Shown here piece by piece: positions 170-21,558 of a DNA stretch of 64,000 nt. Source of the DNA: a virus (Duplodnaviria > Heunggongvirae > Uroviricota > Caudoviricetes); IMG/VR virus record IMGVR_UViG_2718218131_000002. The stretch is one strand, 5' to 3'. Every line of letters begins with the position of its first letter. Positions within the stretch are counted from its first letter, which is position 1. The position numbers and the translations under genes are program-made. Below the pieces are notes generated by a model. The model worked only from the letters and a program-made list of their open reading frames with translations, was not told the DNA's origin and searched no databases.

Positions 170-227
170 AAAAAGGGCGGCAGAGCAGTCACGGAGTAAA
201 ACTGATACCGCCAAACGTCACCAGAAA
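170..227 (-). ncRNA. dicF: DicF small RNA (cell-division inhibitor sRNA of Qin-type prophages)
   Basis: Minus-strand sequence reads UUUCUGGUGACGUUUGGCGGUAUCAGUUUUACUCCGUGACUGCUCUGCCGCCCUUUUU, matching the recalled DicF sequence and ending in a terminator hairpin; lies downstream of ydfC as in the dicB operon. Confidence 0.6.
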
Positions 228-2495: not shown

Positions 2496-3390
2496 ACGCC
2501 CACTGGTTATAAACACGCAGCTGGCAATGAAAATTGGCTTAAACGAAGCCATTGTTTTGCAACAACTGCACTACTGGTTGAGAGATACCAACTCCGGCAT
2601 GGAATGTGATGGTGTTCGCTGGATTTATAACACAACGGAACAATGGCTGGAACAGTTCCCATTCTGGTCAGAGTCAACGTTAAAGCGCGCGTTTGCAAGT
2701 CTGAAAACGCTGGGGCTTTTGCGTTGTGAAAAGCTCAATAAATCAAAGCGCGATATGACCAATTTCTACACGATCAACTACGGGAGCGAGCTTTTAGATG
2801 GTGGCAAATTGAGCGAATCCATCGGTTTAAAATGCGCCGCTCCATCAGGTCAAAATGACACGATGGAAGAGGTCAAAATGAAACGCTCCATTGGTTCAAA
2901 ACGACTCAATGTCATCGGGTCAAAATGGCCTGATGATCTTACAGAGAATACAACAGAGATTACTACAGAGAATAAAAAGACTTCTCGTCCGGAAGCTTCG
3001 CAACCGGACCCGCAGACGGTTGAACAGGATTTTTTAACCCGACACCCTGACGCGGTTGTGTTCAGTGCGAAAAAACGCCAGTGGGGCAGCCAGGAAGATT
3101 TGGCGTGTGCGCAGTGGATCTGGGGGCGAATCGTGAGTCTTTACGAGCAGGCCGCCAGCGATGATGGCGAGATTTCGCGACCGAAAGAACCCAACTGGAC
3201 CGCATGGGCCAACGACGTGCGCACAATGCGGATGCTGGATGGCAGAACTCACAGACAAATTTGTGAAATGTTTGGTCGGGTGCAGCGGGATCCATTCTGG
3301 GTAAAAAATATCATGAGTCCGTCAAAGCTTCGCGAAAAATGGGATGAACTGGTTATCCGCCTGGGCGTTCGTCTGTACAGCGTTGTGTGA
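2476..3390 (+). CDS. Phage replication initiation / replisome-organiser protein (N-terminal HTH, DnaT-like C-terminal region)
   Basis: Probable start at MSLLFAERPLVINTQLAMKIGLNEAIVLQQLHYWL...; occupies the position of the lambdoid O gene. Confidence 0.55.
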   Translation: MSLLFAERPLVINTQLAMKIGLNEAIVLQQLHYWLRDTNSGMECDGVRWIYNTTEQWLEQFPFWSESTLKRAFASLKTLGLLRCEKLNKSKRDMTNFYTINYGSELLDGGKLSESIGLKCAAPSGQNDTMEEVKMKRSIGSKRLNVIGSKWPDDLTENTTEITTENKKTSRPEASQPDPQTVEQDFLTRHPDAVVFSAKKRQWGSQEDLACAQWIWGRIVSLYEQAASDDGEISRPKEPNWTAWANDVRTMRMLDGRTHRQICEMFGRVQRDPFWVKNIMSPSKLREKWDELVIRLGVRLYSVV

Positions 3391-5368: not shown

Positions 5369-6028
5369 CTAAATATGTATATGTTTACCAACAACCACAT
5401 ATGAACTACCTGCTTTGCTCCATGATTTTATTATTTCTAAATTATTATCTGAGCATATTTTACTTACAGTATCCACATCTAATAAACCATAGTAGAAAGC
5501 ATTGCGAGAGTTTTGGTATATATACCCATGCAAATGTTTAATACCGCTCTCGTACCTCTTGAAATAAGAACTTTTGTATTGATTGACAATCAGTGCTTCA
5601 CCATCACTCTTTAATAATTCTCTAATCGCACTGAGGACTTTGTGAATTGTGGATTCACATGGAATTGCGGAAAGCACGTTTGCGCAAAGTATGAAATCAT
5701 AATGATTTGTTATTTTATCTATATTTTCATAAGAAACAATATTAGCATTCTTATAGTTATTTATCACGTAATCTGGAATCGTGGTTTGTACACCTCTGAT
5801 AATTTGCACTCTTTCTAGTTGTCTTCTGGAATCTAAAAATGTCACAGTTTCAAATTTATTTACTAATTGTTCTGAATATCTAAGTTTTCCACATCCAAAA
5901 TCAAGGGCATTGCCATTTTTATTAGTGCTTTCAATCTGTTTACAGAGATAGTTAGATGGCATAGTGTGCGGTTTCGCTGCATTTTCTGAACGTATGTTTA
6001 TTCCATTTATTTTGTAATTCAAAATCAA
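5369..6028 (-). CDS. Class I SAM-dependent methyltransferase (219 aa)
   Basis: Motif I LDFGCGKLRYSEQL, acidic motif FLD and ILCANVL motif; about 30% GC; 6 bp downstream of the membrane-protein gene. Confidence 0.7.
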   Translation of the reverse strand: MILNYKINGINIRSENAAKPHTMPSNYLCKQIESTNKNGNALDFGCGKLRYSEQLVNKFETVTFLDSRRQLERVQIIRGVQTTIPDYVINNYKNANIVSYENIDKITNHYDFILCANVLSAIPCESTIHKVLSAIRELLKSDGEALIVNQYKSSYFKRYESGIKHLHGYIYQNSRNAFYYGLLDVDTVSKICSDNNLEIIKSWSKAGSSYVVVGKHIHI

Positions 6029-6034
6029 CCTCGT

Positions 6035-6742
6035 TTAAAAAATATTGTTATTGTTAAAGAATTCTTTTATTTTGCTATCAGGTATTTGTCTTACTTGGCT
6101 TTCTGTTCTTGGTTTAACTGATGCTATGAAAATAAGGAAGTCAAATGCGACAAGAGAAATAATCCACAACCAAAGATTAATTAAAGAGCCAGTAACAGAG
6201 AATATATTTGTTAATTTGGCGATACTTATTATTAAAATAGTAACAAATGCGATTACTGTATGTTCAAAGAAAACCCAAAAGTAATAAACTTTGTTCCAGA
6301 AAAGTTCAACGTAATGTTTGTCTTTTAACTCTTTAACTTCTGGGTAATACAGTTTACTCATTACCTTGTGAGATTCATCAGTAGTTAATTTTCTCGTAAC
6401 GCCTGCAATTTTTGCTAATGGTTTAATAATTAAATGACTATCCCACATCTTCCTTATTCCAATAATTTTTGCTACATTATTATGTAGATCTAAAGCTCCA
6501 CTAATTACTGACCAAAAAACTGAAGATGCAATTGGTAATATGCCAAAGGTTAATATCCATTTAATAAATTCCTCGTAGTCTTTAACGGGGGGGATATACT
6601 TGGCATTAATGCCAACCAATGGCATGTAGCCATAAATGACTAATGATAGGTAAAATATAAATGTAGTAATAAAAGTCGCCTTATGGAGCATAGGCAACAT
6701 TTCATTATAACTCTTTGGTGGTTCTAACATTTTACTCTCCAA
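6035..6742 (-). CDS. Multi-pass integral membrane protein (235 aa), unknown function
   Basis: Several long hydrophobic segments (FITTFIFYLSLVIYGY, ILTFGILPIASSVFWSVISG, FVTILIISIAKL, LWLWIISLVAFDFLIFIAS); apparently co-operonic with the methyltransferase. Confidence 0.6.
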   Translation of the reverse strand: MESKMLEPPKSYNEMLPMLHKATFITTFIFYLSLVIYGYMPLVGINAKYIPPVKDYEEFIKWILTFGILPIASSVFWSVISGALDLHNNVAKIIGIRKMWDSHLIIKPLAKIAGVTRKLTTDESHKVMSKLYYPEVKELKDKHYVELFWNKVYYFWVFFEHTVIAFVTILIISIAKLTNIFSVTGSLINLWLWIISLVAFDFLIFIASVKPRTESQVRQIPDSKIKEFFNNNNIF

Positions 6743-7171
6743 ACACTCAAAAAAAAGCTAATCTTCTATAATAACGAAATTCAGCTGGCACAATTAAAGA
6801 TTAATTGCCACCAATTTCTTGATTTTATAATTTTATCTAAATGTTTTTGATTAATCTAGTCCTAAAAGAAACCTACTGCATAAATATTTATGCTGATGAC
6901 CCACTCCCTGTTCGTTAACACATAGCAACGTTAGTAATGCATCCTAAGTGATCAATATTTTTGCTAGCTTCATCTGCTCGCTCAAAGGGAACTATAATGT
7001 TGGCTTGCGTGTGACTTGGCATGTTTAAAGAAGTGCTGGTGGTGACTGGTTGCTGTTTTCCATTTCCACAGAACAAAATCATAGAAACTATACCCAGTAG
7101 TTGTATTGAATCACTGACGAGACAGCCTCATATTTATCAGGACTGGTGTACGTCCAATACAGGAGGTTGTG

Positions 7172-7267
7172 GTGCTGGTTCTCAAATGTGCGCTGGCTAT
7201 TGCTGCTGTAATGGCAATTTATTGTCTTGCTGTTGTTCTTATGGATCACCTTTCTGATTGATTTCAT
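7172..7267 (+). CDS. Candidate small hydrophobic peptide (31 aa, MLVLKCALAIAAVMAIYCLAVVLMDHLSD)
   Basis: Canonical AGGAGG ribosome-binding site 5 nt upstream of GTG; one transmembrane-like helix; it overlaps the listed Cys-rich ORF in another frame. Confidence 0.3.
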
Positions 7268-7472
7268 ATTGGCGAGGTAACGGTAGTTAAGTAGAATTGC
7301 TGCGGGTGCTTGAGGCTATCTGCCTCGGGCATCAACACCAAAGGCAGATAGAGAAAAGCCCCAGTTAACATTACGCGTCCGGCAAGACGCTTAACATTAA
7401 TCTGAGGCCATATCTATGCTCTACACACGTAGGTTAGCCTCTTACGTGCCGAAAGGCAAGGAGAAGCAGGCT

Positions 7473-7628
7473 ATGAAGCAGCAAAAGGCGATGTTAATCG
7501 CCCTGATCGTCATCTGTTTAACCGTCATAGTGACGGCACTGGTAACGAGGAAAGACCTCTGCGAGGTACGAATCCGAACCGGCCAGACGGAGGTCGCTGT
7601 CTTCACAGCTTACGAACCTGAGGAGTAA
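7473..7628 (+). CDS. hokD: Hok/Gef-family type I toxin (51 aa), HokD/RelF-like, with an in-frame Mok-like upstream extension from 7416
   Basis: MKQQKAMLIALIVICLTVIVTALVTRKDLCEVRIRTGQTEVAVFTAYEPEE; structured leader upstream; terminator downstream. Confidence 0.8.
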   Translation: MKQQKAMLIALIVICLTVIVTALVTRKDLCEVRIRTGQTEVAVFTAYEPEE

Positions 7629-7696
7629 GAGACCCGGCGGGGGAGTAATCTCCCGCCACCTCTGATGTGCCAGGCATCCTCAACGCACCCGCACTT

Positions 7697-7717
7697 AACC
7701 CGCTTCGGCGGGTTTTT
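7697..7717 (+). terminator. Rho-independent terminator after hok
   Basis: Hairpin CCCGC-TTCG-GCGGG followed by TTTTT. Confidence 0.6.
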
Positions 7718-7793
7718 GCATTAGTCTGGTTGACAAAAATAGAAAAATGCGAAAATATGTGGTTTACGAATTCTAAAAAAAGCGAAACTTGAA

Positions 7794-8444
7794 ATGAATG
7801 AAAATCAGTTAGCTCCTTGTTGGGAATTTCAACCTTATCTTGCTGAAAACTATGTTCGCCACTTGTTGGCGGAGATCGCTAACGTACTTGAGCAGCTGTA
7901 CTATCATAAGCACGCATTAGACAGCAACTGGTCTGAAGGTGTAAGGGCTTATGATTGGGTCAGAAATCATCTTATTCAAAATGAAGATGCAATTCCTGGC
8001 CTTGAGATGATTTCCAAGGGGTTGGACTATGTAGTTGCTTTAAATAAAGTTCCGCTACAATTTACCAAAGATTGCATTAATAACCCCAAAAAGAAACATC
8101 GTCTGCGTCGAAATAAAGTAGAGTATGAGCAACTCTCATTGTTTGGTGATGTTGAGGCTGAGCAAGATATTACATGGCGAGTCATAGCTGAGCCTTTTTT
8201 ATCCGAAGAGGGCGATGGTGAATTAGAGTCCACACTGCCTCGTTGGGAGGTAGCTCTTGTTGGATTTAATACTTATGGTGCTCAGATTAGTATAGTTTCT
8301 CATCAATCTACAGCATCGATGCCGCTTATGCCTCTTGATTATAACACACTCCCTGACGAAGCGGAGATTAATAAGGTGCCTCTTCGTCGGCGTACGAAGG
8401 ATAAAGATTTGGATGTGAGCAGTGATGGAACATCAGGTGAATAA
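7794..8444 (+). CDS. Hypothetical protein (216 aa), partner of the downstream HTH-peptidase gene
   Basis: ORF overlaps the next gene by 23 bp; no recognisable motif; acidic C-terminus. Confidence 0.5.
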   Translation: MNENQLAPCWEFQPYLAENYVRHLLAEIANVLEQLYYHKHALDSNWSEGVRAYDWVRNHLIQNEDAIPGLEMISKGLDYVVALNKVPLQFTKDCINNPKKKHRLRRNKVEYEQLSLFGDVEAEQDITWRVIAEPFLSEEGDGELESTLPRWEVALVGFNTYGAQISIVSHQSTASMPLMPLDYNTLPDEAEINKVPLRRRTKDKDLDVSSDGTSGE

Positions 8445-20344: not shown

Positions 20345-20671
20345 ATGACTAAAAATACTCGTTTTTCCCCCGAAGTCCGTCAGAGGGCGATTCGTATGGT
20401 TCTGGAAAGTCAGGGCGAATATGACTCACAGTGGGCGGCAATTTGTTCCATTGCCCCAAAGATTGGCTGTACACCGGAGACTCTGCGTGTCTGGGTACGC
20501 CAGCATGAGCGGGATACCGGAGGCGGTGATGGCGGGCTCACCACCGCTGAACGTCAGCGTCTGAAAGAGCTGGAACGTGAAAATCGTGAACTGCGCCGCA
20601 GTAACGATATCCTTCGCCAGGCTTCCGCTTATTTTGCAAAGGCGGAGTTCGACCGCCTCTGGAAAAAGTGA
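20345..20671 (+). CDS. IS3-family transposase OrfA (108 aa)
   Basis: [55 protein letters not shown]. Confidence 0.85.
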
Positions 20672-21558
20672 TGCCACTGCTGGATAAGCTGCGTAAGCTG
20701 TACGGGGTCGGACCGGTATGCAGTGAACTACATATTGCCCCGTCAACGTATTACCACTGTCAGCAACAGCGACATCATCCTGATAAACGCAGTGCCCGTG
20801 CGCAGCGCGATGACTGGCTGAAGAAAGAGATACTGCGCGTATACGATGGGAATCATCAGGTATACGGTGTGCGTAAAGTCTGGCGTCAGTTGTTACGGGA
20901 AGGAATCAGGGTAGCCAGATGTACAGTGGCGCGCCTCATGGCGGTTATGGGACTTGCCGGTGTTCTCCGGGGTAAAAAGGTCCGCACTACCGTCAGCCGG
21001 AAAGCCGTTGCCGCAGGCGACCGCGTAAACCGTCAGTTTGTGGCAGAACGTCCTGACCAGTTGTGGGTGGCTGATTTTACTTACGTCAGCACATGGCAGG
21101 GGGGCGTCTATGTGGCGTTCATCATTGATGTGTTTGCCGGATACATCGTGGGGTGGCGGGTCTCATCGTCTATGGAAACGACATTCGTGCTGGATGCTCT
21201 GGAGCAGGCGTTATGGGCCCGTCGACCGTCCGGCACAGTCCATCACAGTGATAAAGGTTCTCAGTATGTATCGCTGGCCTACACACAGCGGCTTAAGGAA
21301 GCCGGATTACTGGCATCAACAGGAAGTACTGGTGACTCGTATGACAACGCGATGGCGGAGAGCATCAATGGCCTTTACAAAGCGGAGGTAATACACCGTA
21401 AGAGCTGGAAAAACCGGACAGAAGTGGAGCTGGCCACACTCACGTGGGTGGACTGGTATAACAATCGACGATTGCTGGAAAGGCTGGGCCATATCCCACC
21501 GGCAGAAGCAGAAAAAGCTTATTATGCTTCCATCGGAAACGATGATCTGGCAGCCTGA
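20668..21558 (+). CDS. IS3-family transposase OrfB (296 aa; DDE integrase core)
   Basis: Overlaps orfA in the -1 frame; DDE catalytic region. Confidence 0.85.

Follow-up and report, generated by a model that had tools for sequence, protein, structure and literature searches.

Small enterobacterial type I toxins are chromosome- or prophage-encoded peptides of fewer than 30 amino acids (aa), each with one hydrophobic helix and a short polar end: TisB and ZorO have 29 aa, DinQ 27, ShoB 26 and Ibs 19. The mRNAs of such toxins typically carry a long folded 5′ untranslated region (UTR) that sequesters the ribosome-binding site and needs processing. Toxins of the Hok/Gef family (PF01848) are small inner-membrane peptides with a C-terminal periplasmic domain, encoded within a hok mRNA under mok/sok and fbi/tac elements. 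A third point of comparison is given by prophage morons and small regulatory membrane proteins (MgtS, AcrZ and small membrane proteins of phages), autonomous promoter-gene cassettes in variable regions whose products are tiny single-pass membrane peptides missed by annotation pipelines. Here, we describe a small open reading frame (ORF) just upstream of hok in a 64,000-nucleotide (nt) stretch of viral DNA (Caudoviricetes; IMG/VR record IMGVR_UViG_2718218131_000002; hereafter the window) and compare it with these systems.

We propose that positions 7106-7261 of the window constitute a genuine, autonomous and unannotated gene for a 29-aa single-pass membrane peptide, which stands beside hok/sok and is independent of it. 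Judged from comparative sequence analysis, we give this reading a probability of about 0.7. It is carried by the pattern of substitutions in the ORF, by the persistence of promoter hexamers and a ribosome-binding site in lineages whose surrounding DNA is unrelated, by the predicted structure of the product and by the occurrence of the unit at loci that lack hok.

The small open reading frame

The original prediction, made from the letters of the window, reported an AGGAGG followed 5 nt later by a GTG. These elements can be read directly (AGGAGG at 7161-7166, spacer TTGTG, GTG at 7172-7174), and the frame that they open has 29 sense codons from GTG 7172, ends with TGA at 7259-7261 and encodes MLVLKCALAIAAVMAIYCLAVVLMDHLSD. 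The prediction had counted 31 codons; its peptide string was correct, and the count fits only from an in-frame GTG at 7169 (7169..7261, 30 aa). In half of the homologues this upstream codon reads GTC, and it stands just 2 nt from the ribosome-binding site; we therefore place the start at 7172. The frame was said to lie just upstream of hok, and it does: the hok promoter (7269-7297) begins 8 nt beyond the end of the ORF at 7261, and the hok coding sequence (CDS) occupies 7473-7628. The same DNA read in another frame contains a 78-aa cysteine-rich ORF (7021-7257), as had also been recorded. The signal is more than a chance match: AGGAGG occurs only 17 times on the two strands of the window, and nine of these sites are followed 4-9 nt on by a start codon with an ORF of at least 25 codons.

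Selection on the small frame

Homologous loci were gathered in three ways. Set 1 was found through the 78-aa frame (84 loci), and its bias, if any, is towards that frame; it was reduced to 38 unique sequences for the count of start codons in the Cys-rich frame. Set 2 was found with a degenerate pattern of the small peptide, which constrains codons 5-17, and it was hence used only for flanks and contexts. Set 3 was found through a non-coding anchor in the leader (205 matches) and is unbiased for the ORF. Selection statistics were taken from its 27 distinct ORF alleles rather than from the peptide-pattern set. Upstream regions were compared in 36 haplotypes from the peptide-pattern loci, where retrieval leaves the region upstream unconstrained.

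All 27 distinct nucleotide alleles of set 3, which represent about 200 loci carrying the unit, are open in the small frame. They encode 19 peptide variants, all 29 aa long over the shared codons; the stop codon is lost in two alleles, giving extensions of 2 and 5 codons. The ratio of nonsynonymous to synonymous polymorphism (pN/pS) is 0.35 in the small frame. It reaches 1.08 in the Cys-rich frame and 0.71 in the +1 frame, and it is 0.69 in a minus-strand frame of 59 aa. Of 43 distinct allele changes, 20 are synonymous in the small frame, against 30% expected (p=0.017), while in the Cys-rich frame the figure is 8 of 42. The 23 replacements in the small frame are all conservative (A/V/T, V/I/A/L, M/V/L/I/T, L/F, D/E/N, R/H, S/T, K/T and C/Y/F), with a mean BLOSUM62 score of 0.26 compared to -0.51 for all possible replacements (p=0.013). 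Even in set 1, retrieved through the rival frame, nine of the 15 variable sites within the small ORF are its third positions. The 150 nt on the 5′ side of the ORF show no codon periodicity (variable sites 15/12/17), and the ORF has no indels, compared to several in the 187 nt directly upstream. The original prediction had named conservation of the Cys-rich frame as the pattern that would speak against it. The opposite was found, and it is the 29-codon hydrophobic frame that is favored.

The most diverged allele, read by eye, differs at about 20 of 90 nt and still codes for a hydrophobic helix, MLALTCVLAIVAVLVIYCLVVAFMERFSD... The ORF contains a single hairpin, a weak terminator-like structure at 7196-7215, which is destroyed in this allele. 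Since the hairpin is lost while the hydrophobic helix is kept, the constraint acts on the protein and not on an RNA fold. This allele, found at loci L221, L223 and L248 (E. coli KSC1031), has lost 11 nt including the stop codon, and its extended ORF of 34 aa stops directly before the hok -10 box. KSC1031 has no annotated hok CDS, and an ISEsa1 transposase pseudogene lies just 3′ of the hok leader there.

Overlapping frames

Two other frames overlap the small ORF, and both were rejected as genes. The idea that the real gene is the 78-aa Cys/Gly/Ser-rich ORF, for example as the precursor of a microcin-like peptide, is very improbable. Gene callers do choose this ORF, whose exact sequence is present in 392 contigs under the name 'hypothetical protein', and its composition is similar, in a superficial way, to that of thiazole/oxazole-microcin precursors. 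Its homologues contradict it. Its start codon, ATG at 7021, is GTA in 34 of the 38 unique homologues. A stop interrupts the frame in one allele and a frameshift does so in two, and the cysteines undergo radical changes to R, Y, G, S or H, so that the conserved ORF with a preserved Cys/Ser/Gly core seen in microcin precursors is not found here. The pN/pS value near 1 and the lack of periodicity upstream likewise speak against it. Gene calls in different genomes give it anything between 47 and 98 aa, only its 3′ part is common to the diverged lineages, and no family in Pfam, NCBIfam or PHROGs matches it. Genes for modification, export or immunity were not found next to it either: its neighbors are a methyltransferase, a membrane protein without a family assignment, hok and the genes matching RmrT and RmrA described below.

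The minus-strand ORF of 59 aa (7088-7267) is an even poorer candidate, and we regard it as having practically no chance of being the gene. It exists, is annotated by automatic pipelines and is a hypothetical protein of phage HannyBb, but its frame is broken by stops in six of the 27 alleles, it lies mostly in DNA that is unrelated between lineages, it has no family matches, and its database records are sporadic.

Proposed promoter, leader and ribosome-binding site

Apart from the hok promoter, the best plus-strand promoter candidate is TTGAAT-17-CATATT (7106-7134), which agrees with the sigma-70 consensus at 8 of 12 positions. A -35 hexamer of the form TTGAAT, TTGAAG, TTGATT or TTGCTG stands at exactly 17 nt in 31 of the 36 upstream haplotypes, and CATATT is present in 35. 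The hexamers and their 17-nt spacing are kept in at least five lineages in which the spacers themselves are unrelated, for example CACTGACGAGACAGCCT, CAAGAAATAGGTTGCTA, TAACGAGCACGAAGACA, TAGTGAGTACAAAGCCA and CGATGAGAAGGCGGGCA. This conservation suggests that the small gene has a promoter of its own, as expected of a moron. Transcription would then start near 7141 and produce a leader of about 31 nt.

Several lineages have a distal upstream region unrelated to that of the window, a 5′ UTR that is 51-65% identical to it and an ORF that is 91-96% identical. Despite this divergence, the 5′ UTR keeps its length and a ribosome-binding site. The site occurs as AGGAGG, GGGAGG, AGGAGA or GGGGG, always equally far from the start codon, and the only lineage without it is a haplotype from a single locus that has AGAAGA at this place.

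Within the promoter spacer, positions 7121-7130 (GACAGCCTCA) are 90% complementary to 7311-7320 at the 5′ end of the hok mRNA (TGAGGCTATC). This 10-nt complementarity is probably due to chance, because it precedes the presumed start of transcription and diverged lineages do not keep it.

Predicted product and proposed role

The best 19-residue Kyte-Doolittle mean of the peptide is 2.7; among the 814 segments of 25-45 aa that lie between stops in the window, 99.6% are less hydrophobic. In the AlphaFold2 model, residues 2-29 form a single helix, at a mean predicted local distance difference test (pLDDT) score of 91.6, and the helix carries a short acidic C-terminal tail, D-R/H-L-S-D. Taken together, the hydrophobicity, the modeled helix and the conservation of the frame support a small membrane protein with one transmembrane-like helix, as was originally suggested.

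In the mechanism that we favor, the sigma-70 promoter would drive a self-contained gene of lambdoid (Qin-like) prophages, whose short leader with its strong ribosome-binding site would lead into 29 codons, beginning with GTG, for a single hydrophobic helix. The product would most likely insert in the inner membrane as a single-pass peptide. Translation and membrane insertion are steps that we infer, as is read-through from the small gene into the hok transcript. Our working guess is that the peptide is a 'moron'-type small membrane protein of the prophage that acts on the host envelope, either by modulating a membrane protein or by perturbing the membrane when over-produced. Like the morons and proteins such as MgtS and AcrZ, the small gene would be an autonomous cassette of promoter and gene in a variable region, and it too is predicted to encode a tiny single-pass membrane peptide that annotation pipelines have missed. 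It differs from them in having no homology to any named small protein and, in the form linked to hok, in lacking a clear terminator of its own. Where hok is absent, a weak element of an A-run, a hairpin and a T-rich stretch can be seen by eye, below the threshold of the scanner. The features of the locus are collected in Table 1.

Table 1. Features at and around the small gene, in coordinates of the window
Feature	Position	Strand	Remark
Left part of the conserved block, non-coding	6982..7105	.	No codon periodicity; several indels
78-aa Cys-rich ORF, chance overlapping frame	7021..7257	+	Rejected as a gene
59-aa ORF, hypothetical protein in phage HannyBb	7088..7267	-	Rejected as a gene
-35 hexamer TTGAAT of the proposed small-gene promoter	7106..7111	+	Best plus-strand candidate, 17 nt to CATATT, 8/12
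-10 hexamer CATATT of the proposed promoter	7129..7134	+	Same place in 35/36 upstream haplotypes; invariant in the first set
Putative 5′ UTR of the small gene, ~31 nt	7141..7171	+	Start near 7141 suggested by position only
Shine-Dalgarno sequence AGGAGG	7161..7166	+	5 nt before GTG 7172
Candidate CDS of the 29-aa single-helix peptide, MLVLKCALAIAAVMAIYCLAVVLMDHLSD	7172..7261	+	GTG start, TGA stop
hok promoter TTGGCG-17-TAGAAT	7269..7297	+	Consensus scan; neighboring unit, outside the small gene
hok mRNA leader and sok target region	7304..7478	+	Rfam RF01794, 114 bits, E=6e-27
hok (HokD-type) toxin CDS	7473..7628	+	RefSeq annotation of the identical FORC 064 locus
Intrinsic terminator of the hok transcript	7697..7714	+	First convincing terminator 3′ of the small gene

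Linkage or selection

Several observations weigh against a selected, self-contained gene. With an ORF of just 87 nt and close homologues (80-100% identity), the statistical support is moderate, at p about 0.01-0.03 for each test. At the nucleotide level the ORF is about as conserved as the adjoining hok block, so simple linkage accounts for some of this conservation. The promoter matches only eight of the 12 consensus positions, has lost its -35 in a subgroup of about 25 loci (TCTCAT) and is deleted altogether in BL21. In RefSeq, no CDS was found for the peptide among the matches listed. A HMMER search of 1.84 billion representatives revealed no relatives beyond a narrow clade and returned only the same peptide with spurious N-terminal extensions.

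A rival reading is that the ORF arose by chance in non-coding DNA and was conserved by traveling with hok, for instance as upstream promoter context, or by recent divergence of the prophages. In its favor, the ORF is 91-100% identical between loci, as is the adjoining hok block, the individual p-values are modest, the RefSeq/PGAP annotation among the matches listed has no CDS for the peptide, and homologues outside the clade are lacking. We nevertheless consider such an origin unlikely. The ORF is intact where hok is absent, and although the surrounding non-coding DNA diverges or is replaced, its promoter hexamers, ribosome-binding site, start and stop are retained. Chance also leaves the excess of synonymous changes, the conservative replacements and the freedom from indels next to an indel-bearing upstream region to be accounted for, and the hydrophobicity is extreme for a random frame. 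We therefore retain the reading of an autonomous gene under selection for its protein product.

Comparison with type I toxins

The original prediction offered two descriptions of the peptide, an additional type I toxin-like peptide or a small membrane protein. The second is upheld; for the first, no antisense promoter, sRNA (small RNA), repeat, fold or family match was found. If the peptide were indeed a type I toxin, it would depolarise the membrane, its translation would be repressed by an undetected antisense or trans-acting sRNA, and hok/sok would have a second type I module next to it. The predicted product, small (<60 aa), hydrophobic and modeled as one helix, has the size and shape of toxins of the TisB, ZorO, ShoB and DinQ class (~26-29 aa, one helix). 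It is strongly hydrophobic with a polar tail, its start codon is the weak GTG, and its gene lies in a prophage and adjoins another type I system.

Neither the regulatory RNA nor the mRNA structure of this class was found at the locus. A search for antisense RNA promoters on the minus strand, proposed earlier as a check, yielded no more than 7/12 matches with poor -35 boxes; no minus-strand promoter of 8/12 or better was found, in a scan that may miss weak or atypical promoters. Rfam at E<=1 reported no RNA family at the locus besides hok/sok. No direct repeat able to supply a trans-pairing sRNA was found, and there are no tandem copies. A structured RNA or sRNA across 6982-7275 was rejected on both strands (z-scores +1.2 and +1.1). 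Nor was there a stable or conserved fold hiding the ribosome-binding site: z-scores for the window allele range from -0.4 to +1.2, and folds are not conserved between lineages. Where type I toxin mRNAs have a long folded 5′ UTR that requires processing, the leader here is predicted to be only ~31 nt, unstructured and poorly conserved. Since lineages that lack hok have unrelated DNA downstream, a cis-antisense promoter would need to lie inside the ORF, and none was seen there. No similarity to a toxin family was found in Pfam, NCBIfam, PHROGs or PADLOC; the peptide resembles the small enterobacterial toxins in its length, its hydrophobic helix with a short polar end and its prophage location, and differs from them in having no sequence similarity to any family model and no partner sRNA that we could find.

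On this sequence evidence we do not count the small gene among the classical RNA-controlled type I toxins, and the existence of a second type I module at this locus seems improbable. No repressor RNA is visible beside the sigma-70 promoter and consensus ribosome-binding site of the small gene, and a small membrane protein expressed from the prophage is an easier reading than a potent toxin.

Relationship to hok

In about 90% of copies, the small gene is followed directly downstream by the hok promoter and hok. In approximately 20 loci without hok (L062 and its relatives, L213, L225 and L237), unrelated DNA comes after the unit of promoter and ORF, then a gene on the minus strand in convergent orientation, and finally ninB. 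Conversely, hok loci of O157-type prophages share the hok promoter and do not have the small gene. Because the unit occurs without hok, the small gene is separable from hok/sok.

The two genes are immediate neighbors, and both encode small inner-membrane peptides of the same prophage block, the membrane location of the new peptide being predicted. BLASTP of the peptide against the adjacent Hok produced no alignment at E<=100, and neither the Hok/Gef profile (PF01848) nor any other Pfam or NCBIfam model matched it at E<=10. The peptide lacks the C-terminal periplasmic domain of Hok. The ORF, which ends at 7261, lies upstream of the hok promoter and of the hok mRNA 5′ end (7304 in the Rfam alignment); in contrast to hok, it is thus located outside the hok mRNA with its mok/sok and fbi/tac elements. 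On plasmid R1, mok overlaps hok in a different frame. At the present locus, an in-frame ATG at 7416 upstream of hok opens a 70-aa ORF (7416-7628), which is annotated as 'MokW-like' in phage HannyBb.

From the end of the small ORF up to 7697-7714, where the hok transcript terminates, no convincing terminator was found. The transcript of the small gene thus probably reads into hok, and if it runs to the hok terminator it would be about 575 nt long. This arrangement raises the question of whether the peptide is coupled to Hok. Read-through would then give a 5′-extended hok mRNA, and the peptide would be a membrane partner of Hok, serving as an enhancer, an immunity factor or a timer. The linkage of about 90% of copies to hok and the lack of a terminator between the units are compatible with such coupling, which would turn the prophage hok/sok into a three-component module instead of the textbook RNA-only system. 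We find coupling doubtful, somewhat more so than either a toxin or a chance ORF, and we prefer a gene that is independent of hok/sok.

Distribution and annotation

The unit (7141-7262) is present in 1921 of 5426 complete E. coli genomes (35%), with up to three copies. It was found by tblastn in four sequenced phages, Evi, Tritos, mEp460_ev081 and HannyBb, and it occurs in more than 200 IMG/VR contigs and in records of E. ruysiae, E. albertii and Salmonella. If it is translated, the peptide would be a widespread small membrane protein of E. coli, encoded in strains that include BL21 and ATCC 25922 (Seattle 1946) as well as FORC 064 and 55989.

Annotation has passed over the peptide almost entirely. 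Its exact 29-aa sequence appears once in GenBank, as the 'membrane protein' APK03751.1, which is the sole named record. No curated family model in NCBIfam, Pfam, PHROGs or PADLOC matches the peptide. The same DNA has repeatedly been mis-annotated as a Cys-rich 'hypothetical protein' of 47-98 aa, and the peptide is missing from the reference annotation inspected. We found no mention of the peptide sequence in the literature searched. The paper on hokW-sokW (PMC8621323) does not mention an upstream ORF. A CFT073 ribosome-profiling preprint (bioRxiv 10.64898/2026.09.28.754932) describes novel small membrane proteins in genomic islands.

The one annotated feature beneath a listed RefSeq match is an overlapping DUF977 gene in BL21. 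In this strain (positions 2704-3113 of locus L247, from NZ_CP060121.1), a deletion has joined the DUF977 gene to the small-gene region in a different frame, resulting in the C-terminus ...RRFMCWFSNARWLLWL. The small-gene promoter is gone, and AGGAGA, the GTG and an intact 29-codon ORF remain, the ORF lying at 1560600-1560689 on the minus strand of NZ_CP060121.1. The annotated C-terminus of DUF977 in BL21 is probably a fusion artefact.

The presence of a second gene beside hok would have practical consequences, since constructs or deletions of prophage hok may unknowingly carry or disrupt a further membrane-active gene. With its start codon, promoter and natural allelic series defined, the small gene is a candidate for small-protein studies.

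Genomic context

Positions 6900-7720 are 100% identical to the chromosome of E. coli FORC 064 and to other E. coli chromosomes. The FORC 064 counterpart is a Qin-like lambdoid prophage integrated beside tRNA-Ser/mtfA, in which the locus lies between the early region with dicA/dicC, ydaT and DUF977 and the later genes. RefSeq annotates only hokD in this identical interval. The small gene is situated at the right edge of a variable cargo and defense hotspot, between the replication genes and the nin/Q region. The left block of conserved DNA has a sharp boundary with the variable cargo on its left, and it is absent or unrelated in diverged lineages.

On the left, the cargo (5369-6742, minus strand) is a convergent pair of genes. 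One encodes a class I S-adenosylmethionine-dependent methyltransferase (Pfam Methyltransf_12/23, with a weak PADLOC match to mad2), and the other a 235-aa multi-helix membrane protein without a family assignment. In other prophages this cargo is swapped for an acetyltransferase, SIR2 with an inosine triphosphatase (ITPase), QueH, or DNA methyltransferases. In L062, of the class without hok, the upstream cargo (76-1693) consists of three plus-strand genes that by eye resemble a deaminase fragment, Ham1/ITPase and SIR2, and this three-gene cargo may be a defense system.

On the right, the two genes directly 3′ of hok (7794-9528, plus strand) match the RosmerTA defense/toxin-antitoxin pair in PADLOC. 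The RmrT match covers 7794-8444 (E=5e-25); the RmrA match, 8422-9528 (E=6e-105), contains a helix-turn-helix and a Peptidase_M78/IrrE domain. The RosmerTA match places hok/sok and the small gene inside a defense hotspot.

Rfam matches above the gathering threshold elsewhere in the window include the DicF sRNA (175-226, minus strand) and three tRNAs in a row (13949-14195, plus strand), directly followed by the STnc100 sRNA (14274-14464, plus strand). A further match, at 20626-20742 on the plus strand, is the ALIL pseudoknot, the frameshift element of IS3-family insertion sequences.

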